Part shown: positions 4,962 through 61,664 of the stretch, one piece after another
Layout: every line of letters starts with the position of its first letter
Numbering within the stretch: position 1 is the first letter of the stretch
Source of the DNA: an uncultured Alphaproteobacteria bacterium
Lineage (GTDB): Bacteria > Bacteroidota > Ignavibacteria > Palsa-1295
Direction: 5' to 3'
DNA length: 64,000 nucleotides
NCBI GenBank assembly: GCA_964404255.1
Contig: CAYOJJ010000001.1
Coordinates: 243,639 to 307,638 of the forward strand
The notes under the pieces: model-generated
What the model was told of the DNA's origin: nothing
Database searches by the model: none
What the model saw: only the letters and a program-made list of their open reading frames with translations
Made by a program: the position numbers and the translations under genes

Positions 4962-5026
4962 GTACACCCGCACTGATTTAATAAAAACTTAACAGCTTTT
5001 TAAAAGCTCTGAGTAGTTACGATACC

Positions 5027-29354: not shown

Positions 29355-30905
29355 CTACGGATTTCGCTCATAGATCTCAAAGACGCCTTCGGTACTTATA
29401 TAATGGTACTGCTCTCTGAAGTGATTATCTGCCTGCAGTTGCGTATTATAATTATCCGTTGAAGATGCAGCTAGTGTTGCCGCTTCATTACAACTGGCGC
29501 TAAGCAGCAGCACATAATTAGGACGTTTATCTATAACATATTCTGCATCGAATGTTTTGCCGGCCTTTCGGTCGCGGGCGATCTTTTTATCCATTAGTCC
29601 ATTTAGATCGAGTAACCTAATCGAAGGATTTCGAAAACCGATCAACCCTGCCTCACCGGTTGCCACCACCGCTGTATCATGGATATGCTCTTTTACCCAG
29701 CTTGCAGCAGCTTCATGATCGATCGTCGAATGACCGATGATCCTCGAGAATCCTGTTTCCATTGATAGGTGCTGACCGCGAAGCGTTACCCGTTCGATAA
29801 AAATAGTACAGAGGGAAAGAAACACACAGATAGTCATGGCAAGCACGGGCCGTGCAAAGAACCTTGTCCCGCCCCGAAACCTGAAAAAGAAGGAGCGAAG
29901 CCCGATAGTACTAAGTATAATGAGTATCGGGGCAATAGGAATAAGAAAGCGAAAGCCCGGCATCCAATCGCCACTCGAGTAGATAGTAAATACCGAAGCG
30001 GTACCAATGAATAATAAGCAGCTCACCAAAAAGCGGTGTCGATAGGTCGGCTCCGTAAATGAGAACGGTATCACAAATAATAATGGCCCGCATAAGCCAC
30101 CAAAACAGGCAAGCAAATACTTGAATCCTAAGATATAGGCTTTTATACCGCCGCCTGTTTTGGCGTAGAACGTATTAGGCAACAGATCGTGGTAGAGCGA
30201 CCATCTCCAGGTAATAAGTATTACCATAAGCAATAGATACGGGAGGAAGCAGTATCGTATCATTCTCAGTTTTTTTCCTGAAAGAATAAAGAGATATGCC
30301 ATAATGATGAGAGCAAATAGGGGCGCTTCGGGACGAACATAAGATGCGAGACCAAAAAATACTGCGAGGGAAAGATAATAACCGGGAGGAACAAGTTCTT
30401 TCGTTACTAATTGTTCGAGGATATAAGCGATCGATAAATAGAAGAAGGCGACCATTGTCATTTCCAATGCTCCGCAGCTCCAGAGGATAAAGGCCGAGCA
30501 CGAAGAGAGCGAGAGCACGGCAAGGGAGGCGTAAACCGTCTGATATAGGTCGCCGCGAAATAACCTTCTTGTGAAGATGAATAGTAGTACAATAGTCGCT
30601 AATCCAAAGAAATAGCTAAGGCCTTTTGCAGCCCAGAGCAGCCCTGCCTCACTTCGGGCGAGACCGGTATATTTTATTGCGGCGATCAATACTACCCACA
30701 AGGGATCGGAAAAACCTTCCACATATTCACCCGCATTATAGACAAACCCATTTCCCGAGGCGACATTATCGGCTACCCGCAGGGAAATAAAAATATCGTC
30801 AACTCCGAAGTTTATATAGTCGATCGTTTGTATCACGATCAATACACTGCTTAACCCCAGAAGAAGGACGACAAGCACGGACCGAGCCTTCCATTGAACC
30901 TTCAT
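29355..30905 (-). CDS. Polytopic membrane protein, GT-C-like, paralog of 775-2679
   Basis: 'GVDDIFISLRVADNVASGNGFVYNAGEYVEGFSDPLWVVLIA', 'RPEAPLF' and 'DLLPNTFYAKTGG' align with the 775-2679 motifs. The C-terminal soluble domain is distantly similar. Confidence 0.7.
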   Translation of the reverse strand: MKVQWKARSVLVVLLLGLSSVLIVIQTIDYINFGVDDIFISLRVADNVASGNGFVYNAGEYVEGFSDPLWVVLIAAIKYTGLARSEAGLLWAAKGLSYFFGLATIVLLFIFTRRLFRGDLYQTVYASLAVLSLSSCSAFILWSCGALEMTMVAFFYLSIAYILEQLVTKELVPPGYYLSLAVFFGLASYVRPEAPLFALIIMAYLFILSGKKLRMIRYCFLPYLLLMVILITWRWSLYHDLLPNTFYAKTGGGIKAYILGFKYLLACFGGLCGPLLFVIPFSFTEPTYRHRFLVSCLLFIGTASVFTIYSSGDWMPGFRFLIPIAPILIILSTIGLRSFFFRFRGGTRFFARPVLAMTICVFLSLCTIFIERVTLRGQHLSMETGFSRIIGHSTIDHEAAASWVKEHIHDTAVVATGEAGLIGFRNPSIRLLDLNGLMDKKIARDRKAGKTFDAEYVIDKRPNYVLLLSASCNEAATLAASSTDNYNTQLQADNHFREQYHYISTEGVFEIYERNP

Positions 30906-31088
30906 AGTGAATTCTGATTATCGTCTTAACACACTACTGGAGCAACCCAGGCTCATTCGGAAAGTTGTCGATCAGTCCAGGTCATTAATCTATCCCCATA
31001 GTATTCTATGATGTCCCAAAGATAAGTTTTCCCTTCGCGGAGAAAATATCGTATTTTTGAGATCTGTTAACAAGCACCTCACTCAACG

Positions 31089-32531
31089 ATGAAACGCTCT
31101 GCCCTTGCTCTGTTTCTGTTACTGCCGCTGGTTGTCTTCGCTCAGCATAATGACGAAGCCACCGACCGCACCGAAAAATACTTCGATCATATTCGTTCGA
31201 CCGAATCCGAATTGACCACTTTCTTTCAGGCGATGCCGAAAGGCGGCGACCTGCATAATCACTTCACGGGCGCCATTTTCCCTGAAGAATATTATGATAT
31301 TGCCCGCGATAGCGGCTTCTATGTGAATCTAAATACTTTTTCTCTGTATGCTCCGCAGACCAACTCCTACGACCCCGGTGTCGTAAAAATTAAAACCTAT
31401 ACCGGGCCGGTCGATATTCGCACTAACCTTATCGAGAACTGGTCGATCAGGAATTATACATCCTCCGAAGGCGCTCCGGACGATTTTTTCTTTTCGACAT
31501 TCGGCAAATTCGGCGCCCTCGTGCCTGGAAACGAGACCAAGTATTTGATGAACCTAAAGAAGCGCTATATCTCCGAGAATATTCAGTATCTCGAAACGAT
31601 GTTCCTTCGGGCTACTTACGATCATACTAATAAAGCGCTCGTCGGATATTTAAGCAGCAAGGATGCCGATCTCGAAAAGATTCAGGCCGTTCATGATAAA
31701 GCAGCGCTTTATAAAGTACTCGATGAGATCTATTCCGAACTTACAACAAAGTACTCTTTTACCGATGTGGCAAATTCCTTTTCACAAAATGTAAAAAGCT
31801 TGTATGCGAAGTCGGCTCTGCCGAATGGCGCCGATAGCGCACTCGAGCTTCGCTTCCTCAATTACTGCTCGCGTACTTTGCCGCCTTCCGATGTGTTCGG
31901 CCAGCTAGTACTGAGCTTTCTTTCCTGTGATAATGAGCTTATCGTTGGCGTAAATATTGTGGCGCCGGAAAATAACCCGACCTCGATGCAGGATTACTGG
32001 CTGCATACCATGTACTTTGCTTATCTGCACGAGAAATTCCCGCAGGTAAAATATTCTATGCATGCCGGAGAGCTGACAATGAATCAGGTGAAGCCGGAAG
32101 ACCTGCATTGGCATATCCGCCAGGCAGTGCTTGAAGCCGGGGCGAACCGCATCGGTCATGGAGTCGATCTTCCTTTTGAGCGCGATTGCCTCGCACTACT
32201 CGATACAATGGCCGCGCGAAAAACCGCCATTGAGATCAATCTTACCTCTAATGAATTTATTCTTGGTGTAAAAGATGGCTTTCACCCCTTCCCGCTGTAT
32301 TTCAGCCACCATGTACCTATTGTTATCAGCACCGATGATGCCGGTATCCTCAGAACTAATCATACCGATCAATTCGTCCTACTTGCAAAAAGGTATTCCG
32401 AGGTGAAGTATAAGGATATTAAGCAGTTCGTCTACAATAGTATCGACTACAGTTTCATGCCCGATGCGAAAAAGAAGACGCTGCATACAAAGCTCGATCA
32501 GAAATTCACGGCCTTCGAAAAACAATTCTGA
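31089..32531 (+). CDS. Secreted adenosine/adenine deaminase-family metallohydrolase (ADGF-like architecture)
   Basis: Signal peptide MKRSALALFLLLPLVVFAQ. 'MHAGE', 'NRIGHGVDL' and 'ISTDDAGI' match ADA catalytic motifs. Confidence 0.75.
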   Translation: MKRSALALFLLLPLVVFAQHNDEATDRTEKYFDHIRSTESELTTFFQAMPKGGDLHNHFTGAIFPEEYYDIARDSGFYVNLNTFSLYAPQTNSYDPGVVKIKTYTGPVDIRTNLIENWSIRNYTSSEGAPDDFFFSTFGKFGALVPGNETKYLMNLKKRYISENIQYLETMFLRATYDHTNKALVGYLSSKDADLEKIQAVHDKAALYKVLDEIYSELTTKYSFTDVANSFSQNVKSLYAKSALPNGADSALELRFLNYCSRTLPPSDVFGQLVLSFLSCDNELIVGVNIVAPENNPTSMQDYWLHTMYFAYLHEKFPQVKYSMHAGELTMNQVKPEDLHWHIRQAVLEAGANRIGHGVDLPFERDCLALLDTMAARKTAIEINLTSNEFILGVKDGFHPFPLYFSHHVPIVISTDDAGILRTNHTDQFVLLAKRYSEVKYKDIKQFVYNSIDYSFMPDAKKKTLHTKLDQKFTAFEKQF

Positions 32532-32540
32532 CCGTAAATA

Positions 32541-32572
32541 AAAAGAGCCGCTTGTAGCGGCTCTTTTATTAT
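32541..32572. terminator. Bidirectional rho-independent terminator between convergent adenosine-deaminase and M42 peptidase genes
   Basis: 'aaataaaaAGAGCCGCTtgtAGCGGCTCTtttatt': a perfect 9-bp stem flanked by A- and T-tracts. Confidence 0.8.
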
Positions 32573-32583
32573 TCAACCTATCG

Positions 32584-33654
32584 TCACGGTCTGAAATCCA
32601 TCTTGCCATTTAGAGCAAGAATGAATTCTGTTAATAGATTCACACAATGATCGATGTCATTTAAGTCCAGCACTTCGACCGAGGAGTGCAGGTAGCGGGT
32701 CGCCGGGCTCAGGACATTGATCGGAATACCGGAGCGGGCCTGGCTGATGGGGTCGGCATCGGTTGAAGTATGGCCGTTATCGACCTCGACCTGATACGGA
32801 ATATTTTTATCGACGGCCGTCTTAATCATGAGGTCGCTGATCTTGCGATTATTACGAATACCGCGTGAGATCACTGCACCTTTGGAAACATCGACCTGTC
32901 CCCATAATTCTTTCGAGATACCGGGAGAATCCGTAGCAGGAGTAACATCGAGTGCTACGGCAAGTGTGGGGTTCAAGTGATACCCCGCCTGACCGGCACC
33001 CCAGACCCCTGTCTCTTCCTGAATGGAGCTTACACCATAGACGGTAGCCTTAAGTTCATTACGGCGGCCATGTAAATTCTTCAATACTTCGGCTACGATA
33101 TAAATGCCAATTCTATTGTCGAAACAGCGGGCGGTGGCACGGGTATCGATGAGGCGGTTATACCCTTCGCCATAGATCGCCACATCACCGATAGCAACAT
33201 ACTTCTCGGCTTCTTCTCTGTTGGTTGCACCAATATCGATCCAGACATCGGTATAGGTGATCTTCTTTGCGCCGCTATCGTCCTTCATGTGATGCGGGGC
33301 TGTGCGGCCGACAACTCCGTGCACTACTCCACCGGTCTTCGAGGAGAAGATACGTACTCGGTGAGATGGTAGAATTGCCGGATCGACACCACCTACGCGA
33401 GAGACATACAAAAATCCGTCGGAATTGATATAGCGGATGACAAGGCCGATCTCATCGGCATGACCGACGATCAGAATAGAAATATCTTCCGTGCCTTTGA
33501 GCGTTGCAATGTTATTGCCGTGACCAATGACCTCGATCGAATCCGAGTACGGCTTAACGGCATCGCGCCAGAGGCTCTGCACATTCTCTTCGTAGTTCGA
33601 GACACCCGGCGTTTCAATAAGTTTTTGTAGGAATTGCTCCTGTGATTGATTCAT
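32584..33654 (-). CDS. M42 family metallo-aminopeptidase
   Basis: 'ILIVGHADEIGLVIRYINSDGFLYVSRVGGVDP' is a typical M42/FrvX signature. Confidence 0.85.
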   Translation of the reverse strand: MNQSQEQFLQKLIETPGVSNYEENVQSLWRDAVKPYSDSIEVIGHGNNIATLKGTEDISILIVGHADEIGLVIRYINSDGFLYVSRVGGVDPAILPSHRVRIFSSKTGGVVHGVVGRTAPHHMKDDSGAKKITYTDVWIDIGATNREEAEKYVAIGDVAIYGEGYNRLIDTRATARCFDNRIGIYIVAEVLKNLHGRRNELKATVYGVSSIQEETGVWGAGQAGYHLNPTLAVALDVTPATDSPGISKELWGQVDVSKGAVISRGIRNNRKISDLMIKTAVDKNIPYQVEVDNGHTSTDADPISQARSGIPINVLSPATRYLHSSVEVLDLNDIDHCVNLLTEFILALNGKMDFRP

Positions 33655-33781
33655 CTATTGTTCTCATAAAAATGTATCGCATGGTTAACGCTCGTTTACC
33701 GAGAGAGTTTCCCCCGCAATTTCCCAGAACTTGTAGATGGTAACAGAGGGATTGCTATCGCGTATGTTTGTAGAGACGACC

Positions 33782-34531
33782 ATGAGAACATTTTCTATTT
33801 TTATCGGCGCGCTGCTCTGCAGCCTCGTTCTTCCGTTACGCGATACGCTTTGTTTTTCAACTCCTGACCCGACCCATTTCCGTCTGCTGCTGACAACCGA
33901 TTCCAATGCCGGCGGGCGCCACCTCGATGTCTGGACCGTACTTCCACAAGCGAACGATCCTAAACATCCGAACCTTGCTTTTATTAATGCGAAGGTGTAT
34001 ATCGATGGAATAGCTTTACCGGTCAATGATGGTACGGGCGGGCAGGTTAATTTTAAGGATGGGCATGTACCGGATTCGGTCACTATTCTTGTCGTTCAGG
34101 GAAAAGATTCTGCGTTGTTCAGGCTTCCTATCCCCCATTCGATGATGGAGCTGCGGCCGGTAGTTCATCGGTCTTCGATCGCTACCTACATCAATATCAT
34201 TCAGCGACAACTCGGGCCGAGCGATGAAGCCGACGTCTTTTTTTCCATTCCCCCGGATGATAAAAATCCCCATCTTCCGGCACGATTGAAAGCTACCCGG
34301 CACTCGGTAGAACTTGCTCCGAGCAGAGGAACACCCGGCGATATCCATTCCGAATTCTATGCCGTCCCGGCAAAACTCGATACGGGATCATATCTTTTAC
34401 AAATTACGGTCGATAATGGAATAACGGCCATTTCCCCTTTTAGATCTTCCGTTAAAAAGGAGCGGCAGCCGGTGTTCGAATCAGTGGCTATAACCCATAC
34501 AGAAAAAACTATTACTCTTGTAGATCCCTAA
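33782..34531 (+). CDS. Secreted hypothetical protein
   Basis: The probable start is MRTFSIFIGALLCSLVL (signal peptide). No recognisable motif. Confidence 0.45.
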   Translation: MRTFSIFIGALLCSLVLPLRDTLCFSTPDPTHFRLLLTTDSNAGGRHLDVWTVLPQANDPKHPNLAFINAKVYIDGIALPVNDGTGGQVNFKDGHVPDSVTILVVQGKDSALFRLPIPHSMMELRPVVHRSSIATYINIIQRQLGPSDEADVFFSIPPDDKNPHLPARLKATRHSVELAPSRGTPGDIHSEFYAVPAKLDTGSYLLQITVDNGITAISPFRSSVKKERQPVFESVAITHTEKTITLVDP

Positions 34532-34584
34532 CACAGCTCCATAGAGAGCATCAGCGCGTTCTAAAGCATTGTACATTGTAAGCC

Positions 34585-35091
34585 TTATCGCTTTTCAAAA
34601 TTCAGCGACGCAGAGTTCATGCAATAGCGAAGGCCGGTCGGCTTTGGACCGTCATCGAAGACATGACCAAGGTGAGCGCCGCAATTCGAGCACACTACTT
34701 CCGTACGCTCCATACCATAGCTGTTATCCGATCTATTGACTACCGCTTTTTCATTGATAGGTTTATAAAAACTCGGCCAGCCGGTCCCGGATTCGAACTT
34801 CGTTTTTGAATCGAAGAGCTTCTGCCCGCAGACAATACATGTGTACGTACCGTCTTCATGATTATCCCAGTACTTGCCGGTATACGCTCGCTCGGTGCCT
34901 TGCTCCTGGGTAACGTTATATTGTTCGGGTGTGAGGCGTTTACGTAGTTCGCTTTGGCTGAAGGTTTTGCGCGGCCTGAACTTCATCGAATCGGCAGTAC
35001 TATTTCCTGCAGTAGATTTTCCGCAGGAAGAGGATGATCCAAGTACGGCAATCAAACCGATGATAATGAGTAATACGCGAGTCGCTTTCAT
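34585..35091 (-). CDS. msrB: Peptide-methionine (R)-S-oxide reductase MsrB, lipoprotein (periplasmic) form
   Basis: Lipobox 'GSSSSC'. SelR motifs 'CGWPSF' and '[21 protein letters not shown]'. Confidence 0.9.
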
Positions 35092-35156
35092 ATTCTTATT
35101 AATTTTGTAGTAGATACAACGTCTTATCGTTGCCAGATTTAATAGTACGAGCAGTT

Positions 35157-35819
35157 ATGAAAACAGTTGCAGTCATTCTCTCAGGATGCGGCTACCTCGA
35201 TGGAGCCGAGATCCGCGAATCCGTCGCCACCTTATTGGCGCTTGCCAAACGCAAAGCCACGGTGCATATCTTTGCGCCCGATGCACCACAGACCGTTGTT
35301 ACGAATCACTTAAGTGCGAAAGCTACCCCGGAGACACGTAATATGCTTATCGAAGCAGCCCGCATTGCCCGGGGAAAGATCAGCCCGCTTTCCGAACTTC
35401 CCGATCTCGATTACGATGCCATGATCCTGCCCGGCGGCTTTGGGGTTGCAAAAAACCTTTGTACGTTCGCTAACGATGGCGCTGCCGGCAAGATCCTCTT
35501 TCCCGAACTCGAACGCGATATAAAGGGAATGTATCAGGATGGCAGGCCGATCGGAGCTATTTGCATTTCTCCCGCTCTTATAGCTCTTGCCCTAAAAGGA
35601 GAGAAGCTGGAATTGACCCTTGGCGCCGATAATGGCGCTGCCGACGAAATAAGAAAGCTTGGCCATACCCACATTGTTACTACTCCTTCAGAGATCCATA
35701 TCGACGAAGCCCACAAGATCGTTACGACCCCGGCTTATATGTATGACGATGCCGCGATCGACGAAGTTTTTACCGGTATCGATGCCCTGGTCGAAGCAGT
35801 GCTCTCAATGACGCATTAA
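35157..35819 (+). CDS. elbB: DJ-1/PfpI-family glyoxalase ElbB
   Basis: 'MKTVAVILSGCGYLDGAEIRE' and 'AICISPALIA' match ElbB. The start is at the internal Met of the called ORF. Confidence 0.8.
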   Translation: MKTVAVILSGCGYLDGAEIRESVATLLALAKRKATVHIFAPDAPQTVVTNHLSAKATPETRNMLIEAARIARGKISPLSELPDLDYDAMILPGGFGVAKNLCTFANDGAAGKILFPELERDIKGMYQDGRPIGAICISPALIALALKGEKLELTLGADNGAADEIRKLGHTHIVTTPSEIHIDEAHKIVTTPAYMYDDAAIDEVFTGIDALVEAVLSMTH

Positions 35820-36847
35820 AAATTCTTCGAAGTAAATTCGGGAGCGGCAACTTCGATGGGCGGAAGATCGATAAGATCGAACGCATCGATCTTTTCAAGA
35901 TCGAGTACGCTCGTCCCGTCGTCATCGGTTGAAATAGCCGAGACGAATTTTGCTCCGTAAATAATCTCATTGTGAACGTATGAGCTGCGGGAATAGACCG
36001 TCTGCGAATACGTCTCATCGTACGCTTTAATCTGCACCATCACTTCCGAATCTCCGGCGATGATCTCTTCGCGCGTATAACCGAAGAGCGGGCTGGCTTC
36101 GCTGATTGGATGAACGATCGTCCAACTCGATGCCAGGACACTTACCCGTTGCAATTCCAGCGGCAAGGTATAAAATTTTCTCGATAATCCTCCGCTTTCC
36201 GAAAGCTCATTACGCGAGAGAATCATCAAGGCTTCGAGCTCGATAAGCTGGTTACGCCTGCCATTGGCCAGACGCACCATTACCCCCCGGCCTCCTTTAT
36301 AGGGAGCAACGACGGCTGTCTTACTATAAATAATATTTGCATCCGGATGCGAAAAGCGCCCATATAATAAACCGGTAGCCATCGCAAAAGAAAGCAGGCC
36401 GAGCATTGATTCTATGGCCGCCACCAGGCTCGTTGAAAAACCTACTGGGCTAATACGCCCATAACCGAGGGTCGTCAGTGTTTGAGTACTAAAGAAGAAC
36501 GCTTCGCTGAATTGATCGAAGAAGGTATCGCCGATCATACCATGCAAATGCTCTACCCCGAGCAAATAATAAAGAATGGCAAAAACAAGATTTGTGGCGA
36601 TAAATACAATAAAGAGCATCAGGAAGAACTTGCTCCATCTCATTGTCACGAGCGAGTGAAAAGAGTTATTGAAGAAGTTCTGGCGCTCGCCGATGCGGCG
36701 TACATTAAATGTTCCATCCTGCCGGACCAGGCGTTGGCCACTATAGGTCGGACGCGTACCGAAGCCAAGCTCCGCCGCTTCGGCAGGCTTTTGGCCGTCG
36801 TGTTGTTTTGGGCGCAACAATACTCTATTCTTCGATCGGTAAATCAT
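35816..36847 (-). CDS. Inward-rectifier-type K+ channel (KirBac-like)
   Basis: Selectivity filter 'TTLGYG' between two TMs. The cytoplasmic beta-rich domain 'RLANGRRNQLIE...HPISEASPLFGYT' resembles KirBac1.1 'RAANARQNVIAE...HVIDESSPLFGET'. Confidence 0.85.
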   Translation of the reverse strand: MIYRSKNRVLLRPKQHDGQKPAEAAELGFGTRPTYSGQRLVRQDGTFNVRRIGERQNFFNNSFHSLVTMRWSKFFLMLFIVFIATNLVFAILYYLLGVEHLHGMIGDTFFDQFSEAFFFSTQTLTTLGYGRISPVGFSTSLVAAIESMLGLLSFAMATGLLYGRFSHPDANIIYSKTAVVAPYKGGRGVMVRLANGRRNQLIELEALMILSRNELSESGGLSRKFYTLPLELQRVSVLASSWTIVHPISEASPLFGYTREEIIAGDSEVMVQIKAYDETYSQTVYSRSSYVHNEIIYGAKFVSAISTDDDGTSVLDLEKIDAFDLIDLPPIEVAAPEFTSKNF

Positions 36848-36852
36848 TGTCG

Positions 36853-37263
36853 TTACTTTGCTTCGGTTTCTCCTTCTTTAAAGACAAGCGAGGCGGAATT
36901 GATGCAGTACCGTAAATGTGTGGGCGGCGGCCCGTCATCGAAGACATGGCCAAGATGCGCGCCACAGGTAGCGCAGGTAATTTCTTTACGGTACATTCCG
37001 AAAGATAAATCGACGGATTCTTTAATGGCTACATCCTTCGTCGGCTGGTAAAAACTCGGCCAGCCGCAGCCGGATTCGAATTTTGCTTCCGAGGCAAAAA
37101 GCGGCGTATCGCAGACCACGCAGTGATATATGCCCTTCTTGTGGTTATTCCAATACTCCCCGGTGAAGGCTCGTTCGGTACCTTTTTCCTGGGTCACATG
37201 ATATTGCATCGGCGTCAGGCGCTCTCTGAGCTCCTCATCGCTAAAAATCTTCTTGGTTTCCAT
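36853..37263 (-). CDS. msrB: Peptide-methionine (R)-S-oxide reductase MsrB (cytoplasmic form)
   Basis: 'CGWPSFYQP' and '[24 protein letters not shown]'. No signal peptide. 5 nt upstream of the Kir gene on the same strand. Confidence 0.9.
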
Positions 37264-37397
37264 TTGGGTGGTAATTCAGTAGCCTACATAGTACGAATAT
37301 ACCACCGAAGCGTTACAAGCCGCTTATACTGTGAAAGAGGCCCCGTTTCTTTATTTGTACTGTTCGGAAAGGCCGTTTTGGACTTCTTATAAATAAC

Positions 37398-37433
37398 AAC
37401 TCCTTCCCTCTTGTGCGAAAGAAGGAAGGAGTT
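37398..37433 (-). terminator. Putative terminator hairpin downstream of the BNR/T9SS gene
   Basis: 13-bp arms AACTCCTTCCCTC / GAAGGAAGGAGTT (1 mismatch), 10-nt loop. On the minus strand it is followed by GTTATTTATAAG. Confidence 0.4.
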
Positions 37434-37459
37434 AATTAAGAAATTAACGACGTATCAGA

Positions 37460-38686
37460 TCAATTTATCAATAATTTCCCATGCCCCATCTGCTTATTAC
37501 CCTCTGAAACTCCCTCCCAGAAATATACCCCGTTTGAAAGCGAGGCCATGGAAACTTCATGCTGGCCCTGCAGGTCTTTTTGCAGGACTTTGCGACCGAG
37601 ATTATCATAGATCGCTATCGAATTCATTCCGGCATCTTCGGCCAGGTGCAGTACCTTTCCGGCATCGATACCAGCAACCATCTCGCGCTCGGAAGAAGGG
37701 ATATAGACCGATTCCTGTGGTGTATTTATGAACAGTACTCCGTTCTGGCCACCAACGAGTTCTTTGCCATCCGGCGAAAGCGCCATCATGGTAAATACCT
37801 GGTCTTTATTATAATAATCTGTTTTCCAGCTTTCACCGCCATCGGTACTTTTTACGATGCGCCCGTTTTGATTCACGGCGTACCCCGTATTGTTATCGTG
37901 AAAATCAATAGCGATGAACACACTGCTATCAGTGCCTTCATAAACCCGTTTCCAGCTATTGCCGCCATCAACTGTTTTATAGATGGCATCCTGGCCATCG
38001 GAGCCGGCATAGAAGCCTGTGCGATCATCGAGAAACTTCAACCCCCCAATGCTTCTGGTTTGATCGAAATCTTTAAGCAGCGACCAGCTCAAACCACCAT
38101 CGGTCGATTTATAGATCTTATCGGCAAGACTGGGAATAAAACCGCCTGCGGCATAACCGGTCATCGCATTAGGAAAATTTAAGTATCGATACACCAGTGT
38201 ATCGTTACCGGTATCCGCCGCTTTCCAAAATTTTCCGGCATTAACTGTTTTAATAATAAGGCCGTTAAACCCGCAGGCAACTATAGTATCAACCCCCAGT
38301 TGCTTTACCGCATATAATCCGAGCGAAGAAGAGAAATTAATATTATTCCAATTATCGCCGCCATCGAATGACTGCATGAGCAGTGCACAACCGCAGGTCG
38401 GATCATAACCCGCTACATAGGCTACATCTTTCGAGATAGAACTGACACCGAATAAAAAATAATCGTCAACCACACCCCAAATATCCTTGAAGTGCATCCC
38501 CCCATCGGTCGATTTGAAGATAGTAACATTTCCATTTCCCCAGGCGCTCAGGTAGGCGGTCATGGTATCGCCAAAAGCTCCGCCATAATAACTTTGGGGT
38601 AACGGCGCTCCCAACGAATGCCATTGCGATTCGGCGGCAGTGCTGACAAGCAGCAGACAAAGAGAAAAAAGTACCGATGTTTTCAT
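37460..38686 (-). CDS. Secreted BNR/Asp-box repeat protein with T9SS C-terminal sorting domain
   Basis: Start at MKTSVLFSLCLLL (signal peptide). Repeated 'S(T)xDGGxxW(F)K' Asp-boxes (at least 5). The C-terminal ~80 aa look like a T9SS CTD. Confidence 0.75.
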   Translation of the reverse strand: MKTSVLFSLCLLLVSTAAESQWHSLGAPLPQSYYGGAFGDTMTAYLSAWGNGNVTIFKSTDGGMHFKDIWGVVDDYFLFGVSSISKDVAYVAGYDPTCGCALLMQSFDGGDNWNNINFSSSLGLYAVKQLGVDTIVACGFNGLIIKTVNAGKFWKAADTGNDTLVYRYLNFPNAMTGYAAGGFIPSLADKIYKSTDGGLSWSLLKDFDQTRSIGGLKFLDDRTGFYAGSDGQDAIYKTVDGGNSWKRVYEGTDSSVFIAIDFHDNNTGYAVNQNGRIVKSTDGGESWKTDYYNKDQVFTMMALSPDGKELVGGQNGVLFINTPQESVYIPSSEREMVAGIDAGKVLHLAEDAGMNSIAIYDNLGRKVLQKDLQGQHEVSMASLSNGVYFWEGVSEGNKQMGHGKLLIN

Positions 38687-38922
38687 GATGTTCCTCGTGA
38701 TGATTCGAATGATCGATGATAACCGAACGATATACACTCCCTGCCGGGGAAGCATAGGATATATCGAAACTATACCTGTTGATATACTCCACGAGGAATA
38801 ACTGGATTCAGCAACTCCTTCTCAGGAATTGCTTATCAGACAAGCACAAAAGGAATGAGCAAAAACCGATAAAAAACGAGGAATAAATCTATTGGAATCA
38901 ATATATTTCGATCCCCAATTTA

Positions 38923-39300
38923 TTATAAACCTGACCAATGGTAAGCAATAATGGTGCCGGTAGTATTGATGGTAAAACTGCGTTCAACCGTTTTTGAATG
39001 TTTCGTCGGACGGGAAATATGAGTCCTTCCCCAGCTATCATACCAGACATATCCCGGAGATGAAGAAGACTGGGTATAACGATAGGTAAGCTCGCGAGAA
39101 CCATCCATTGTTTTGTAGGTCCGGTTGGGAGCGCCCCAACGGGCGACAAGATCGGTCTCGGATTTACCAACCCAGCTTTTCATTGCCGTTTCAATTTCTT
39201 CGCGGCGCGCTGCTTCGGAGGGGCCACAGCTATTTACGGTAATAGCAGCTAATAGAATTAATAAAAATAGACGTACCGATAGAATGGAATTCTTATTCAT
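38923..39300 (-). CDS. Small exported protein/lipoprotein, unknown function
   Basis: Signal peptide with 'TVNSCGP'. 125 aa. Confidence 0.5.
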   Translation of the reverse strand: MNKNSILSVRLFLLILLAAITVNSCGPSEAARREEIETAMKSWVGKSETDLVARWGAPNRTYKTMDGSRELTYRYTQSSSSPGYVWYDSWGRTHISRPTKHSKTVERSFTINTTGTIIAYHWSGL

Positions 39301-39302
39301 AC

Positions 39303-39737
39303 TTACTTTGACGGATATTTCTTTTTCATTCCCTGATAAGCGGTACGTACTATCTGGGAAAGGACTTTCTCATCGACATCGGAAAGTTTCGTAATGTACA
39401 AACACCCTTTGCTCATCTTATGCTTCCCAAGTTTTTCGAGAAGGGTATCGAGCAATCCGCTGCCGGCCATGACATAAAATGTCATCTTCCCTTTGCGCGG
39501 AGAAAACCCAACGAGCGGCGCATCACCTTCACGGCCGCTTTCATAGACATAGTGATAGGATCCAAAACCAATAATAGCAGGTCCCCACATCACCGCCTTT
39601 TCGCCGGTGGCTTCTTTCATAAGTTTCAAAGCCTTCTTGCTATCGGCACGCTGCGCCTCATCTTCCACCGAGTTGATAAAATCCGTTACACTGGCTTTGG
39701 TTGCGACCGTTTGGTTTTCGTTCTTCTTTGCCATCAA
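39303..39737 (-). CDS. DUF1801 (YdhG/YjdN-like) domain protein
   Basis: 144 aa. 'VTDFINSVEDEAQRADSKKALKLMKEATGEKAVMWGPAIIGFG' has the DUF1801 pattern. Confidence 0.55.
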   Translation of the reverse strand: MMAKKNENQTVATKASVTDFINSVEDEAQRADSKKALKLMKEATGEKAVMWGPAIIGFGSYHYVYESGREGDAPLVGFSPRKGKMTFYVMAGSGLLDTLLEKLGKHKMSKGCLYITKLSDVDEKVLSQIVRTAYQGMKKKYPSK

Positions 39738-40255
39738 CGTTCTAAAAAATAGGTTTTGAATTCCTGCAGTTCTTTGAGTTCTTCTTCAATATATTTTTCG
39801 AAGAGTATATCCCCAACTTGGGGTCGCAAGGAAGAGATTCCCGTGTCTATAAGCCGAAATCCCTGTTCGGTCAAGAGCACATTATCATATTGCTTACCAG
39901 ATGAAACCGATCGGGAAATATGACGGTGTACAAAGTTTGAAGTATGTAGCTGCTCTATCTTCTTCTCAAATTCTTTAAATAGTACTTCTCGCTTCTCCAC
40001 TTCATAGCTGCGATAATCAAGCGGATATAATCTCTCCATGACAAGCATCTCCGCATTACTTGCTTCATGCACATCGAGCCGAATAAACTTTACTACCAGA
40101 CCATTAATACTATTAGCGAGCTTCATTTTCTCGGCTTCGGAGCCGATATCGCTTCTGGTATCACCACTAAAAAGCTTCCCACACTCGGTATCCGAGAGGG
40201 CGACAACCACATTGTTCTCGCCCGATGAAAGCCGGTGCTGGTAATACCTCGTCAT
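39734..40255 (-). CDS. Minimal protein-kinase-like (PKL) fold protein
   Basis: 173 aa. 'FVHRHISRS...NVLL' resembles the catalytic-loop pattern HRDxxxxN; 'LIDTG' is DFG-like; 'VVKF' is a candidate ATP-lysine strand. Overlaps the DUF1801 gene by 4 nt. Confidence 0.45.
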   Translation of the reverse strand: MTRYYQHRLSSGENNVVVALSDTECGKLFSGDTRSDIGSEAEKMKLANSINGLVVKFIRLDVHEASNAEMLVMERLYPLDYRSYEVEKREVLFKEFEKKIEQLHTSNFVHRHISRSVSSGKQYDNVLLTEQGFRLIDTGISSLRPQVGDILFEKYIEEELKELQEFKTYFLER

Positions 40256-40259
40256 AGCA

Positions 40260-42452
40260 TTATCTTACAACCTCAAGCAATATCTCCGCAATATCTTTTA
40301 CTTTGACATCGTCGGTGCGTTCTTTGGTTTTTACACCGTCGGTCATCATCGTCATGCAGAAGGGGCAGGCCGAAGCAATTGTATTGGCTTCTGTGGAGAG
40401 GGCTTCCTCCGTACGTTCGATATTGATGCGCTTGCCTTGGGTCTCTTCCATCCACATCTGTCCGCCGCCGGCGCCGCAGCAGAGACCCTTAGATTGGTTA
40501 CGCGGCATTTCGATGATCTCAAGGCCCGGAATCGATTCGAGCGTAGCGCGCGGTGCATCGTAAATATCATTCGAGCGGCCGAGATAGCAGGAATCGTGAT
40601 AGGTCACGCGCTCTTCAAGATCTTTGGTGATCTTTAAGTCGCCTTTTGCAAGTAACTCGGCTACGTATTCGGTGTGGTGAACGACATCGTAGTTACCGCC
40701 GAAATCACCCCACTCATTTTTGATCGCATTGAAGCAGTGCGGGCACGTCGTAACGACCTTCTTAATATTATACCTATTAAGCGTCTCGACGTTCTCTTTA
40801 ATAAGCATTTGTGCGAGATACTCATTGCCCATACGACGAGCCGGGTCGCCAGTGCACTTTTCTTCTGTGCCGAGAATCTTGAAATTAATACCGGCGATCT
40901 GCATTAATTCTGAAAAAGCGCGGGAGATGCTCTTCGCACGAGCATCGAACGAACCGGCACAGCCAACCCAGAAGAGCACGAGGTCTTCTTTCTTCGGAGC
41001 GCCACGTTCTTCATAGGAAGCCATTGTTTCAATACCCAGTCCATCGGCCCAATCGGCGCGCTCGCTCGGGCTGAAAGCCCACGGCGAGAAATTATTTTCC
41101 ATCGAGCTGAAGGCCGGCTGTAATTCCGGCGGGAAGTTCGCTTCCATCATCACGAGGTTACGGCGCAGATCGACAATCTCATCAACGTGCTCAATCGTTA
41201 CCGGGCATTCCTGCATACAAGCCTGGCAGGTGGTACACTGCCAAAGCATTTCAGCCGGAATATAATCGCCGATAAAATTCTTTGCATCGACTTCCTCTGT
41301 ACTCATCTTTGCCTTTGCACCAAGCAAACCACCGGCTTTGGCAGGAGCAACCGTTGCAGCAGGTTCGGCATGGTGGTGGCCATGGGGATCGGCAGGCGTG
41401 GCATTCTGGCCCGGCATATTGACAGACTTGCCAGAGTAGCTTCCGCCTCTCCAGGCGGCCTGCATACCGTCTTCCCAGGAATCGAAACCAAACTTATTTT
41501 CGGCTACCAGGTGCGGAGCCTTATCGAGCATACGCTGATGCGTTGCAATGATGATCCATTTTGGATCAAGAATTTTTCCCGTCGTATTTGCCGGACAGAC
41601 TGAAGTACAACGGCCGCAATGCGTACAAGTATCGCCATCGAAAAGCTGCTTCCAGGTCAGATCTTCTATATCTTTAGCACCATACTGTGTCAGCGTTTCA
41701 TCTTCGAAGTTGATGGGCTTCAGATAATTCTTGCGGCGAAGATCGGAAAAGAACACGTTGGGGATACTCGTCATTACATGCAAGTGCTTCGAGTATGGGA
41801 GGTAATTCATGAAGCCAAGCACACCAAGTATATGCACCCACCAGAATACTTCGCCCATCGTTGCCGTCTTATGACAAGGGCAAAGCATACCGGCTATATA
41901 AGAAGCTACCGGACGAACTTCGCCGTGATACATGCCCCCGGTTGCAATGCGCGAGGCATTCGTCATCATCAATGAAAGGACGATGAGTGTAATAGCATAG
42001 AGCACGACCTGGGCATCCACCTGCTCATGCTTATCGCCTTGCAGGCGCTTTACTTTGCTAACCAGACGACGCCAGAGCGCAACGATCACCGATAAGAAAA
42101 TTAAGACGACAAAGATATCCTGCGAAACCGTAATGACGGGATAAATAGGGCCGAGGAATGAAAGCGAGAAATGGCCAAGGAGACCTTCGCCGATCGATTC
42201 GATAACGGCGGCAAGCAATACTAAAAAGCCCCAAAAGATAAACGCATGAACCGGACCAGCAACCGGGTCGCGAAAGATCTTTGTCTGTCCGATGGCAATG
42301 ACCAGCGTCCGGCGCAAACGCTCGACGAGGTTATCGAAGCGGTTCGTCCATTTGCCGATACGCAGGAAGTCGATCAGCCTGCGGCTATTATAGAAGACGC
42401 CGCCAAAGGCCGCCAAAAGCACAACAAGGAATACGATCGTTTTTACGGTCAT
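40260..42452 (-). CDS. Membrane-anchored Fe-S oxidoreductase, fused HdrE-like (b-type heme TM domain) + HdrD/GlpC-like (2x[4Fe-4S] + 2 CCG domains)
   Basis: N-terminal 5-6 TMs with conserved His. 'CTHCGRCTSVCP' and 'CTTCQACMQECP' are ferredoxin motifs. 'CAGSFD', 'CPHCFNAI', 'CCGAGGG' and 'CPFCMTMM' are CCG cysteine-rich domains. His-rich linker 'PHGHHHAEP'. Confidence 0.75.
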   Translation of the reverse strand: MTVKTIVFLVVLLAAFGGVFYNSRRLIDFLRIGKWTNRFDNLVERLRRTLVIAIGQTKIFRDPVAGPVHAFIFWGFLVLLAAVIESIGEGLLGHFSLSFLGPIYPVITVSQDIFVVLIFLSVIVALWRRLVSKVKRLQGDKHEQVDAQVVLYAITLIVLSLMMTNASRIATGGMYHGEVRPVASYIAGMLCPCHKTATMGEVFWWVHILGVLGFMNYLPYSKHLHVMTSIPNVFFSDLRRKNYLKPINFEDETLTQYGAKDIEDLTWKQLFDGDTCTHCGRCTSVCPANTTGKILDPKWIIIATHQRMLDKAPHLVAENKFGFDSWEDGMQAAWRGGSYSGKSVNMPGQNATPADPHGHHHAEPAATVAPAKAGGLLGAKAKMSTEEVDAKNFIGDYIPAEMLWQCTTCQACMQECPVTIEHVDEIVDLRRNLVMMEANFPPELQPAFSSMENNFSPWAFSPSERADWADGLGIETMASYEERGAPKKEDLVLFWVGCAGSFDARAKSISRAFSELMQIAGINFKILGTEEKCTGDPARRMGNEYLAQMLIKENVETLNRYNIKKVVTTCPHCFNAIKNEWGDFGGNYDVVHHTEYVAELLAKGDLKITKDLEERVTYHDSCYLGRSNDIYDAPRATLESIPGLEIIEMPRNQSKGLCCGAGGGQMWMEETQGKRINIERTEEALSTEANTIASACPFCMTMMTDGVKTKERTDDVKVKDIAEILLEVVR

Positions 42453-42522
42453 ATAAAATAGCTAAACTCGAAAGGGCAAAAATACGCGATTTAGGGCCAG
42501 CGCTTGGTTATCGCGCCTTGGC

Positions 42523-43347
42523 TTATTGAATTGAAGCAAAAAACGCCAGAATGATAATGCCGGCCAGTATTCTATAAATACCAAAACCCACAAATGAGTG
42601 ATGGCGCACATACCCGATAAGCCAACGAACTACTACCAGGGCGGAGATAAATGCCATTACAAACCCGATACCGAGCGTCGAGAACATTTCGCTCGTAAGC
42701 AAATGGCGGTACTTCACCAATTCATAACCACTGGCCGCAATCATCACCGGAAAGCTAAGCAGGAAGCTGAATTCCGTTGCCGATTCTCGGCTCATACCAC
42801 CGGCATAACCACCCATGATCGTCGCACCGGAGCGTGAGACGCCCGGAATAAGCGAAAGTACCTGCGAAAACCCTACGATCCAGGCATCGCGCATACTCAT
42901 CGAATGCAGGTCTCTTCTGCTGCCGCGGCGAGCCATAATCATTTCTATTGTGATCATTATAACCCCGCCGATAATAAGGCTCAGTGCCACCGTTGTTGGA
43001 GAAAAAAGATAGTCTTTGATCTGCTTATGAAATAAAAAGCCGATGGCGGCAGCCGGAAGGAAAGCTATGATCAAATGAGAGCGCAGATTTCCCGAAAAAG
43101 AACGAGCCTCTCTTGCAATAAGCGCCTTCCATAGCCGTTTACGATACAAGAAGCCGATCGCAAGAATAGCTCCGAGCTGGATAACGACCTCGAATAGTTC
43201 GGCCTGATCGGGGTTTGAAAGCATTTTCTGGAAGCCCAGCAAATGATCGAAAACGATCAGATGCCCGGTCGAAGAAACGGGGATGAATTCGGTCAGGCCC
43301 TCGACAAGGCCCAAAATGAGCGATTGGATCCAGATCGGAAACGGCAT
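42523..43347 (-). CDS. uppP: Undecaprenyl-diphosphatase
   Basis: 'GLVEGLTEFIPVSSTGHLI' and 'SRSGATIMGG' are BacA/UppP motifs. Confidence 0.9.
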   Translation of the reverse strand: MPFPIWIQSLILGLVEGLTEFIPVSSTGHLIVFDHLLGFQKMLSNPDQAELFEVVIQLGAILAIGFLYRKRLWKALIAREARSFSGNLRSHLIIAFLPAAAIGFLFHKQIKDYLFSPTTVALSLIIGGVIMITIEMIMARRGSRRDLHSMSMRDAWIVGFSQVLSLIPGVSRSGATIMGGYAGGMSRESATEFSFLLSFPVMIAASGYELVKYRHLLTSEMFSTLGIGFVMAFISALVVVRWLIGYVRHHSFVGFGIYRILAGIIILAFFASIQ

Positions 43348-50245: not shown

Positions 50246-50833
50246 GTGGCTGAACTCTTAGAAACGGTGGAAAAGCGCAAGGCGGGTTCGAACGAACAGG
50301 ACCAGGCGCTCGAGCTGCAACTGCTTCGCGAATTCAAGGAAGGAAAGCGCGAGGCTTTTACGCAGCTATACCTACGGTATCGCCAGCGGGTCTATGCGTA
50401 TTGTCTGAGAATGCTTGGTAATGCCGATGAAGCGGAAGACTTATTCCAGGAGGTCTTTATCCGTGTCTGGCAGCGGGCTTACCAGTTCACCGAAGAACGA
50501 AGCCTCTCCGGATGGATCTTTACCATCGCTCATAACTTGTGCCTCAATCGTATCCGCGATCGTAAAGAGCATTCTTCGATCGACGATTACTCCGATCTGG
50601 CAGCCGAAACACCGGCCTTCGGAGAAGATTGGGCAGAACGGATTCAATCGGCACTCGAGCAGGTACCGCCCGAAAACCGGGAGCCCTTCGTGCTCTTCGA
50701 GTACCAGGGGCTAACCTATCAGGAGATCGCCGAAGTTATGAAACTCACGATCGCCGCGGTCAAGAGCAGAATTTACCGCGCCCGCGAAGAGCTGAGAAAA
50801 ATTTTAGAACCCTATTATAGAGAAGAAATATAA
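50246..50833 (+). CDS. ECF-type RNA polymerase sigma-70 factor
   Basis: Region 2 'LFQEVFIRVWQ' and region 4 'REPFVLFEYQGLTYQEIAEVMKLTIAAVKSRIYRAREEL'. Confidence 0.9.
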   Translation: MAELLETVEKRKAGSNEQDQALELQLLREFKEGKREAFTQLYLRYRQRVYAYCLRMLGNADEAEDLFQEVFIRVWQRAYQFTEERSLSGWIFTIAHNLCLNRIRDRKEHSSIDDYSDLAAETPAFGEDWAERIQSALEQVPPENREPFVLFEYQGLTYQEIAEVMKLTIAAVKSRIYRAREELRKILEPYYREEI

Positions 50834-50873
50834 TAACGATATAGAGCTACAGGAAAGAGGTAATTCATAGGTT

Positions 50874-52202
50874 ATGGAAATGGATATCATGACAATACAG
50901 CTTCAGGAATTTCTCGACGGAAGTTTGCCGCCCGAGCAGGAAGCTGAATTGCTGCACCGGTTATCGGTCTCGCCGGAGCGGAGAAATTTGCTGCGCAGCT
51001 ATATGAAGCAGCAGGCGGTCATCAGCACCGACCGTGCTTCGATCGCCGTGCCGTATGCAACCGAGCAAAAATTATGGGCGGCGCTTGCTGCTCTTCCACC
51101 GGCTGCGGCACCGGTTATTCCTGCTGCAACTTCCGTTGCTCCTATTGCCGCTACTTCGGTATTCTTCAAAGTAGCTGCTGTTGCCCTGGTCTCTGCTATC
51201 GTTGGCCTGGGCTCCGGATATTTTCTCTGGCATAGCGAAGGTGCTACCTCAGCAGCAGGTAAAACGATTGTTCCCGGACCGGTTGCAGAGCTTGCCCCGG
51301 CCGCTTCTTCTACCACGTCTGCCACTACTACTCTTACGGACAACGGTACCAGCCATACCGTTTTAGCGAATGCCTCACGTCCGGCAATTATTTCCCAGAA
51401 CCACTCTATTGTATCTCAGTCATACGAAGCGCCCCTGCCAACCCTTGAGATCGCTTCGGTTCCGTTGGTTAATGACCCGATGCATCTCAATGGTTCGACT
51501 CGTACCATCCCGGAAGGATCCTATTTCCTTCCGGCTTCGGTACAGATTCGCGATCCGTATGGAGTGCAATACAATCGCCCTGCCCTCGGTGGCAGCGCCG
51601 AAGTTCGTGAACAAGGATTTCTCGAACGCTTCGACCTGCAGGTTCATGAAGCGGTTGGAAAACAATTTCCAAACACCACGGCAACCAATACCTCTTACCC
51701 TATTATTATCAATTCCGATGTTCAGTTAAAATATATGCTGAATCAGGATTTCTGGGTCGGAGTAGGAGTAGGTACTTCAAATGTAACGCAAAAGAAATTG
51801 AGTAAGGCTTTGATCGATGATGGCAATCCGTTAGCAGGATATACTATTGTCAGTGATCTGGTCCACGAGCAAACGAATTGGGTAGGCGCATCGCTCGAAT
51901 ACCGGATACCGGTCAGTTCAAGAGTCGCTATTGCTGCTAATGCAGGTATTGCCGCTTCTTCGCTCGGACCGATTTACAGTTCGGAGATAGGTGCCCGCTT
52001 CGATGTCTCGACCCAGATCGGTATTTTGGCCGGAGTTCGGGGAACGATGGTTTATAGCAGTGCTACCCAGCAGTATGAAGCGGTTAAAGCGGAAATTCTG
52101 CAAACAAAAAGTCCTTCGCCTACAAGCGTAGGACCGGATGTTAGTAAAAATAACCCGAACTATAACCTGGAGCTTTCGACGGGAATCTATTTTCACTTTT
52201 AA
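50874..52202 (+). CDS. Anti-sigma-like single-pass membrane protein with beta-rich C-terminal domain
   Basis: The N-terminal ~60 aa is an anti-sigma-type helical domain. TM 'VFFKVAAVALVSAIVGLGSGYFLW'. Ala/Thr/Ser linker. The C-terminal ~170 aa has an alternating hydrophobic pattern and ends 'GIYFHF'. Confidence 0.6.
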   Translation: MEMDIMTIQLQEFLDGSLPPEQEAELLHRLSVSPERRNLLRSYMKQQAVISTDRASIAVPYATEQKLWAALAALPPAAAPVIPAATSVAPIAATSVFFKVAAVALVSAIVGLGSGYFLWHSEGATSAAGKTIVPGPVAELAPAASSTTSATTTLTDNGTSHTVLANASRPAIISQNHSIVSQSYEAPLPTLEIASVPLVNDPMHLNGSTRTIPEGSYFLPASVQIRDPYGVQYNRPALGGSAEVREQGFLERFDLQVHEAVGKQFPNTTATNTSYPIIINSDVQLKYMLNQDFWVGVGVGTSNVTQKKLSKALIDDGNPLAGYTIVSDLVHEQTNWVGASLEYRIPVSSRVAIAANAGIAASSLGPIYSSEIGARFDVSTQIGILAGVRGTMVYSSATQQYEAVKAEILQTKSPSPTSVGPDVSKNNPNYNLELSTGIYFHF

Positions 52203-60358: not shown

Positions 60359-61602
60359 TAATATAGCAAATACTTCTTTCGCTTAGTACGGAAAGCGGCA
60401 ACTTGCGGTTTCCAGTTATTGATGAGCGCTGTAACTTCATCCCCGCTGCTATGGATCGAAACATGAGTAAAGAGCTTCAATACATCATCGCAGCCCGTTA
60501 CTTTTTCGAACATTCGTTTTGAAGAAAAGGCTACGGCATCGAAGGCTTTTTTAAACGCAGTATCGCTTAGGAGTGAATAAAAGATCTTGAACTGGCAGCT
60601 ATAAAGATCGGGTATATTCAGTATATCCTTGGGCAAAATTATTTTCACACCATTATAGGTTTTTAGCGAATCTGCATAAGGGATGGTAAATGATTCTGTA
60701 ATAAGCGAGAAGCCATTGAACGAGATCGTTGCTTCGGAAAGCAGCCGATCGCTTGTGACAAGCCGCGACCCCAACCGCAGAAATGGTAAATCAGAACCAA
60801 CACCGACCGAAAGCGTGCCAAGCTCACCGATCGCTCCACACATAGCACATCCCACAGCACTTTCGAAGGTAGGGATGTTCGGGCTGGGGGCGACCCATTT
60901 CAAACCGGTTTCCGGCCAAAGCGTATAACGACCCCATTTCTGCATTGTAATTACCGATAGTTTTAATTTATTGGCAGCATTGAACCAGCGCTCGCCTTTT
61001 GCCATCTTAGCCAGTTCACCAAGTGTCATGCCATGAATATATGGTATCGGGACTTGGCCAACGAACGAGCGAAGGGTCGTATCGAGCACATTCCCTTCAA
61101 TGCGTGTACCTCCCAAGGGATTAGGCCGATCGAGTACGATGAATTCAACCTTCTGCTCTGCTGCTGCCTCCATTGCAAGGATCATCGTGGAAAGATAGGT
61201 ATAGGCTCGCACACCAATATCCTGAAGATCGAAAACCACGGCGGTTACACCTTTGAGCATTTTCTTCGTTGGCTTGCGGGTAGAGCCATAAAGCGAATAA
61301 ACCGGGATGCCATTGTACTTCTCTATTTTATCGCTTTCAACTCCGGCCTTGCGAGTACCGTTTAAGCCATGTTCAGGCGTTAATAACGCAACCAGCGTAC
61401 AGCCTTTTTGCTTAAGCAGTACATCGGCGGCAAACTTGCCATCGGAGGAAACAGAAGTCTGGTTACAAATCAGGGCGATCTTCTTCCCTTTAAGCAAAGA
61501 AGCATCGCCTGAAACTACATCGAGACCGGTACGCACCGAAGCAAATAGCGGCACCGATACCAACAGCATTATAAATAAAAAAAAGCTACGCATGGGGTTC
61601 AC
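60358..61602 (-). CDS. namZ: Exo-beta-N-acetylmuramidase NamZ (DUF1343)
   Basis: Signal peptide. 'ALLTPEHGLNG', 'DLQDIGVRAYTY' and 'VLDRPNPLGG' are DUF1343 signatures. Confidence 0.8.
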   Translation of the reverse strand: MNPMRSFFLFIMLLVSVPLFASVRTGLDVVSGDASLLKGKKIALICNQTSVSSDGKFAADVLLKQKGCTLVALLTPEHGLNGTRKAGVESDKIEKYNGIPVYSLYGSTRKPTKKMLKGVTAVVFDLQDIGVRAYTYLSTMILAMEAAAEQKVEFIVLDRPNPLGGTRIEGNVLDTTLRSFVGQVPIPYIHGMTLGELAKMAKGERWFNAANKLKLSVITMQKWGRYTLWPETGLKWVAPSPNIPTFESAVGCAMCGAIGELGTLSVGVGSDLPFLRLGSRLVTSDRLLSEATISFNGFSLITESFTIPYADSLKTYNGVKIILPKDILNIPDLYSCQFKIFYSLLSDTAFKKAFDAVAFSSKRMFEKVTGCDDVLKLFTHVSIHSSGDEVTALINNWKPQVAAFRTKRKKYLLY

Positions 61603-61664
61603 AAGCTTCGTGTAACAATAGATAATTCATAGCGTTCTATTAGTAGCGAATTTTTATCATCCCA

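Follow-up and report, generated by a model that had tools for sequence, protein, structure and literature searches.

We examined a 64,000-nt window of the assembly GCA_964404255.1 (contig CAYOJJ010000001.1, positions 243,639 to 307,638), in which a gene for a methionine-R-sulfoxide reductase, msrB, stands directly in front of a gene for a KirBac-type K+ channel, kir. The pair belongs to a four-gene locus, and all four open reading frames (ORFs) were found by ORF listing and profile scans at the positions that an initial annotation of this DNA had assigned to them. The cytoplasmic MsrB is encoded by the first gene of the apparent operon (36853..37263, minus strand) and the channel by the second (35816..36847, minus strand). 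A gene for a glyoxalase of the DJ-1/PfpI family, elbB (35157..35819, plus strand), converges with kir, and beyond a divergent intergenic region of 65 nt (35092..35156; 38-70 nt in orthologous loci) lies a second msrB with a lipoprotein-type signal (34585..35091, minus strand). The profile scans bore out the identities that had been proposed for the four genes. Two further statements of that annotation, that msrB lies 5 nt upstream of kir on the same strand and that elbB convergently overlaps the channel stop codon, also agree with the sequence (TAA-cgaca-ATG at the first junction, TTAA at 35816-35819 at the second).

Information about the conservation of the pair was obtained from 80 genome loci (GTDB genomes) and 80 metagenome loci (JGI), which were collected by Kir family alignments and then searched for the neighbour genes of the window. 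A neighbour-joining tree was built from the 160 Kir proteins, and eight exact-protein look-ups added further clade members, in all of which msrB stands directly before kir. Every channel with an upstream msrB falls in a single, Kapaibacterium-like clade of this tree. In 17 of the 19 informative loci of the clade msrB is immediately upstream of kir and co-directional with it, at Kir identities to the window protein of 51-69%. Thus, the pair is not a peculiarity of this genome. The 5-nt gap of the window corresponds in the orthologous loci mostly to a 4-nt overlap (ATGA/GTGA) and elsewhere to a spacing of 0-5 nt. With a shared strand, a gap without room for a terminator or a promoter and a conserved adjacency, msrB-kir bears the marks of an operon.

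The tight coupling of the two genes is maintained while their surroundings change. The complete block of msrB-kir, elbB and lipoprotein msrB was found in 11 loci, despite differing flanks. Upstream of it we observed a run of Fer4/CCG and DUF1801 genes (window, L161, L165, L169, L172), a pst operon on the other strand (L162, L163) or a BNR/TMEM131-like gene (L170), and downstream an M42 aminopeptidase gene, the gene of ribosomal protein S20, a GSDH gene, a sigma factor gene of the extracytoplasmic function (ECF) type or a DUF4097 gene. The block itself can be incomplete, as elbB is missing in L005 and L006 and the lipoprotein msrB in L006, L083 and L170. No rearrangement breakpoint was found between msrB and kir within the linked loci.

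None of the 133 informative Kir loci from Bacteroidota outside the clade (Pedobacter, Mucilaginibacter, Cytophagales, Flavobacteriales, Saprospiraceae and Ignavibacteriaceae) had an upstream msrB. The recurrent neighbours of kir in these loci are trp-biosynthesis-like genes, recognised by sequence inspection, and SDR genes, on the opposite strand. Since these neighbours are unrelated to those of the window, the msrB-kir link is specific to the Kapaibacterium-like lineage, and its absence at the 133 loci means that the pairing is lineage-restricted and not general to the Fibrobacteres-Chlorobi-Bacteroidetes (FCB) group. Conservation across FCB genomes, which the initial annotation had proposed to check, was accordingly rejected. 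A single Msr neighbour was observed among the loci outside the clade, in a Saprospiraceae metagenome-assembled genome (L036) whose Kir comes from an unrelated clade. There, an ORF of 335 amino acids with an MsrB domain (4311-5318, minus strand), possibly an MsrA-MsrB fusion, is divergent from kir (5989-6927, plus strand) at a distance of about 670 bp. This proximity is probably due to chance.

The product of kir is a predicted KirBac-type inward-rectifier K+ channel of 343 amino acids. It matched Pfam IRK (2.3e-08) and Ion_trans_2 (6.4e-08), both above the cut-offs, and IRK_C (3.6e-22; 79.3 bits against a cut-off of 22.5) over residues 172-332, which correspond to the C-terminal beta-rich cytoplasmic domain of immunoglobulin-like fold. 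Its nearest solved relative is KirBac3.1 (2e-59, residues 30-320), and the alignment spans the first transmembrane helix, the pore and the second transmembrane helix and continues to residue 320. KirBac1.1 gave a weaker match (3.8e-45). The earlier label of "KirBac1.1-like" was therefore right about the KirBac family and slightly off about the member. With both structures the homology takes in the slide-helix region, both transmembrane helices and the pore helix, as well as the TxGYG filter and the immunoglobulin-like domain, and Kir has the two-transmembrane pore domain with pore helix and T-x-G-Y-G signature that defines such a channel. It differs from KirBac3.1 and KirBac1.1 in a leucine within the selectivity filter (TTLGYG, residues 125-130, 36458..36475, minus strand), in its N-terminus, MIYRSKNRELL, which is conserved in the linked clade, and in its place in an operon led by msrB. 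Leucine occupies the usual Val/Ile position of the filter in 11/13 msrB-linked channels, which read TLGYG, and in 11/148 of the others, 136/148 of which have TVGYG. Homologues of Kir number more than 5,000, and the nearest ones are labelled Candidatus Kapabacteria or Kapaibacterium, a Bacteroidota family.

The cytoplasmic MsrB (136 amino acids) is a complete enzyme without signal peptide. It matched Pfam SelR (1.1e-53) and TIGR00357 (194.2 bits, cut-off 113), and its closest solved structure is human MsrB3 (1.3e-53). It contains two CxxC zinc motifs, the resolving cysteine in SGCGWPSF and the catalytic cysteine in RYCINS, and the last two motifs are kept in every cytoplasmic orthologue. The orthologues are 76-84% identical to one another and carry no extra domain. 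The second MsrB also matched SelR (2.1e-55) and TIGR00357 (202 bits, cut-off 113). Its N-terminus has a hydrophobic stretch followed by a cysteine, conserved among orthologues, which fits a lipoprotein and is in line with the lipoprotein signal that had been read there before. This copy has no thioredoxin domain. Both copies carry RYC[IM]NS and both CxxC motifs, and the resolving cysteine is confined to the cytoplasmic copy: across the clade the lipoprotein-type proteins always have SGTGWPSF and the cytoplasmic ones always SGCGWPSF. The two paralogues share 63% identity, compared with 54% to the single outgroup sequence, and they are kept distinct throughout the clade. No msrA was found in the window by tblastn, for which a sequence of E. 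coli MsrA served as the query.

The elbB product is a predicted ElbB glyoxalase. It scored 267.8 bits (cut-off 180) with the NCBIfam equivalog model NF008747 over model positions 1-217 of 218, and it contains the GAICISP motif with the nucleophile-elbow cysteine. Because the model begins at residue 10 of the longest ORF, we take the ATG at 35157 as the true start. The stop codons of elbB and kir overlap, with 4 nt in common, and their convergent adjacency was found in 15 clade loci. The overlap is 4 nt in most loci and reaches up to 20 nt in some (the window, L001, L002, L003, L165 and L167 are among the loci with a stop overlap). As a consequence of this overlap, each transcript must terminate within the other gene, and antisense or transcriptional interference between the kir and elbB units is possible. 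On the other side of elbB, the 65-nt region must contain both divergent promoters, that of elbB and that of the lipoprotein msrB.

Further indications on the expression of the pair came from the DNA in front of it. The preceding gene ends in a strong terminator-like hairpin (37397..37434, minus strand) with a stem of 16 pairs, 6 of them G-C, and a T-rich tail, TTATTTATAA. Due to this hairpin, msrB-kir looks like a transcription unit of its own. The DNA upstream of msrB could not be aligned among loci save for one conserved block, in which no columns but G-AACG ... T-T-CGT are invariant. The window has it as GTAACGCTTCGGTGGTATATTCGTA (37292..37316, minus strand), that is, GTAAC-N16-CGTA, and 28 nt separate its end from the msrB ATG. 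In 11/17 linked loci the pattern G[AT]AAC-N15-17-CGT[AT] occurs 10-29 nt before this ATG, and from its sequence we consider it a putative ECF-sigma promoter, a type with AAC as the -35 and CGT as the -10 element at a spacing of about 16-17 nt. It resembles the sigma-F motif of Caulobacter, GTAACC-N16-CGAA (PMC3511200), and in Azospira a hypochlorite-induced Msr system is driven from a SigF motif of similar form (PMC4436054). Control of msr genes by ECF sigma factors has also been reported in Neisseria, Haemophilus and Brucella, and such regulons answer to hypochlorite or reactive oxygen species (PMC4436054, PMC7907618, PMC2893595). The Neisseria Ecf/sigma-E-msrAB, H. influenzae RpoE2, Azospira SigF/NrsF-MrpX-MsrP and Caulobacter sigma-F systems resemble the present locus in an msr gene behind a promoter of the AAC...CGT type, which here is a putative one. 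They differ from it in that no K+ channel has been reported in any of these regulons.

The motif also occurs before other genes. In six loci, one of them the window (33711-33687, minus strand), a site of this type, GAAACTCT-N13-CGTT, lies before the nearby M42 aminopeptidase gene. Other sites in the window lie before the likely true start (MRTFSIF..., with a signal peptide) of a secreted protein of 264 amino acids (33740-33764, plus strand) and before an S51 peptidase gene (61612-61636, plus strand). Their position is unusual, as 5/7 window sites are no more than 60 nt from a long ORF, where the baseline is 14%. In the divergent region between elbB and the lipoprotein msrB, in the window and in the orthologous loci, no ECF-like motif was found, except before the lipoprotein msrB in L005. 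In L170 the motif precedes the ECF sigma gene that abuts the block. The occurrence before the M42, 264-aa protein and S51 genes, and before the lipoprotein msrB of L005, suggests a regulon of repair and peptidase genes that would depend on an alternative sigma factor. A further window site was observed at 60387-60412 (minus strand), and a small membrane-protein gene is also among the genes preceded by the motif. Sites in other loci are found in L003 (8402-8426), L005 (7523-7547 and 6948-6972), L162 (8203-8227), L167 (4415-4439) and L081 (3449-3473). In L006 (about 5480-5570) and L083 (about 4500-4590), msrB is preceded not by the ECF-like motif but by an inverted repeat, ATAACTT-N15-AAGTTAT, and then by a G+C-rich hairpin whose T-run stops at about 10 nt from the start codon. 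This element may be an attenuator or an operator.

According to these observations, we propose that msrB-kir is a co-transcribed operon, probably induced by stress through an ECF-type sigma factor and situated among repair and detoxification genes, and that the link between its genes is the co-regulation of protein repair with K+ conductance. We give this reading a probability of about 0.5. The bicistronic unit, characteristic of Kapaibacterium-like Bacteroidota, would have a promoter of its own, situated beyond the terminator of the gene before it, and this promoter would be of the kind read by alternative, stress-responsive ECF sigma factors. If so, the cell would produce its cytoplasmic enzyme for methionine-sulfoxide repair at the same time as a K+ conductance, most likely upon oxidative, chlorine or electrophile stress. 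MsrB would repair oxidised cytoplasmic proteins, while the channel would adjust K+ flux or membrane potential, and hence cytoplasmic pH or turgor, in the same stress. The separately transcribed genes that adjoin the operon, elbB for a glyoxalase and the msrB for a periplasmic lipoprotein, would add detoxification and repair functions.

A similar logic is known from E. coli, where K+ efflux by KefB/KefC works together with glyoxalases in the defence against electrophiles. The likeness is one of logic only: in the present lineage the 15 loci mentioned above have a K+ channel gene convergent with that of a DJ-1/PfpI glyoxalase, and the Kef systems are glutathione-gated proteins similar to K+/H+ antiporters, not Kir channels. 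The proposal of the initial annotation, that the genes form a redox-repair and K+-flux unit, stands in part. The msrB-kir coupling and the four-gene block agree with it, while elbB and the lipoprotein msrB are each transcribed apart from the pair and were lost in some members of the clade.

Several observations speak against the co-regulated stress operon. The motif was not found in 6/17 linked loci, and its pattern was derived post hoc from these same sequences. Over the whole window it was observed 7 times where 4.9 +/- 2.2 were expected, so that its number is not above chance. The ECF sigma gene of the window (50246-50833, plus strand; Sigma70_r2 and r4_2) lies at a distance of 13 kb and lacks a matching upstream motif. 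Two loci of a nested sublineage, L082 and L084, have the channel without msrB. In addition, synteny of the region is fairly general in the lineage, and part of the conservation of msrB-kir may therefore be due to inheritance and not to selection. The ECF sigma gene is followed by a gene for a protein of 442 amino acids (50874-52202, plus strand) that has a membrane segment and whose N-terminus is anti-sigma-like. This sigma/anti-sigma pair (50246-52202) was considered as the source of the motif and was not supported, since the AAC...CGT upstream of it is wrongly spaced.

A rival explanation is neutral synteny. In this case, msrB would be the housekeeping cytoplasmic MsrB of the lineage and kir would have landed behind it by chance in an ancestor, repair and K+ flux being unrelated. 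The pair would then persist by inheritance and because a split would orphan kir from its promoter, and local duplication and chance would account for both msrB genes and elbB being so close. The pairing is indeed limited to one family-level lineage, and the other neighbours are largely syntenic too, with the Fer4/CCG-DUF1801 genes upstream in the five loci named above and the M42 gene downstream in several. The closer identity of the MsrB paralogues to each other than to the outgroup fits a local duplication, and L082 and L084, the first with its channel flanked by TPR and alpha/beta-hydrolase genes, lost the link but not the channel. However, several independent rearrangements and gene losses took place right beside the pair and never inside it, the start/stop overlap is maintained at Kir identities down to 51%, and the presence of one motif type before msrB-kir and before the M42 gene suggests a common regulation. 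We regard neutral synteny as possible, although less probable than the co-regulated operon.

More doubtful is a direct action of MsrB as a dedicated partner of the channel. MsrB could reduce methionine-R-sulfoxide in Kir and so affect its gating, as MsrA does for Shaker and BK channels, or it could dock on the cytoplasmic domain and serve as a redox-sensing auxiliary subunit similar to Kv-beta. This would agree with the start/stop overlap, typical of translational coupling and kept over 17 loci, and with the fact that msrB is always upstream of kir and is not separated from it in the loci that lost elbB or the lipoprotein msrB either (L005, L006, L083). Methionine oxidation and MsrA regulate eukaryotic BK channels (PMC2225619), and in BK/Slo1 and in Shaker N-type inactivation an oxidised methionine alters the gating and Msr reverses the change. 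There, MsrA acts on channels from other families and the link is biochemical, while here the enzyme is MsrB and the link is genomic only. A comparison of 13 msrB-linked with 148 unlinked Kir channels revealed no methionine conserved specifically in the linked ones, and the methionine content is 2.9% in linked and 3.1% in unlinked channels. M69, M148 and M190 are as conserved in the unlinked channels as in the linked ones, and M156 is a methionine in only about half of the latter. The cytoplasmic domain has three methionines, and its sole conserved one is the family-wide M190. A clade-specific or enriched methionine was therefore not found in this alignment, and the idea of the initial annotation that MsrB repairs or regulates the channel through methionine oxidation found no support in the sequences. 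The few clade-specific residues of Kir (E26, F82, R212, Y280) are conservative and not redox-active, MsrB is a generic, highly conserved enzyme whose best solved match is a human protein, no MsrB-Kir fusion was found among the 120 best Kir homologues, and the L082/L084 sublineage retains the channel without msrB.

With no methionine specific to the linked channels, the eukaryotic BK/MsrA precedent is an analogy without sequence support, and we find a dedicated partnership improbable. An action of MsrB on the channel is conceivable because family-wide methionines could be its targets. A redox-gated K+ conductance, working by reversible oxidation of, for example, M190 or M148, or by docking of MsrB on the cytoplasmic domain, seems to us a little less probable still.

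Bacterial Kir channels have been structural workhorses, and the role and regulation of KirBac channels in the cell are largely unknown (PMC3003375). A full-text search of the literature gave no paper on KirBac together with Msr or on operons of msrB with a K+ channel, and no genomic partner of KirBac channels was found in the literature searched. The association, of which the initial annotation was not aware of a description either, thus appears to be previously undescribed, although the component genes are ordinary members of known families. The conserved operon links one KirBac clade with the repair of methionine sulfoxide, beside a glyoxalase and a periplasmic MsrB and probably under the control of a stress sigma factor, and it provides a testable hypothesis for bacterial Kir function, namely that the channel is part of the response to oxidant or electrophile stress. 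It is also a natural system for asking whether methionine oxidation gates a prokaryotic K+ channel. If a direct partnership were true, MsrB would be the first physiological regulator to be defined for a KirBac channel, and the channel a prokaryotic counterpart of the Msr- or Kv-beta-regulated K+ channels of eukaryotes. The sequences show the identities of the genes, their tight coupling, the conservation of the pair within the lineage and the conserved footprint in front of it. The functional steps, from co-transcription and dependence on an ECF sigma factor to the stress that induces the pair and to the direction and role of the K+ flux, we infer, for an uncultured lineage to which the association is confined.

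The wider region has a flat G+C content throughout. No Rfam family matched positions 30000-43000 at E<=0.1, and no known riboswitch or leader is thus expected there. The gene that precedes msrB and ends in the hairpin described above encodes a BNR protein with a type IX secretion system (T9SS) sorting domain (37460-38755, minus strand), and it appears to be an insertion in the window and in L003. Behind it, on the same strand (38923-42452), a Fer4/CCG-domain protein of 730 amino acids, an ORF of 173 amino acids, a DUF1801 protein and a lipoprotein-like ORF of 125 amino acids are encoded in a run. This run, also present in L161, L165, L169 and L172, is the ancestral upstream context of msrB-kir.

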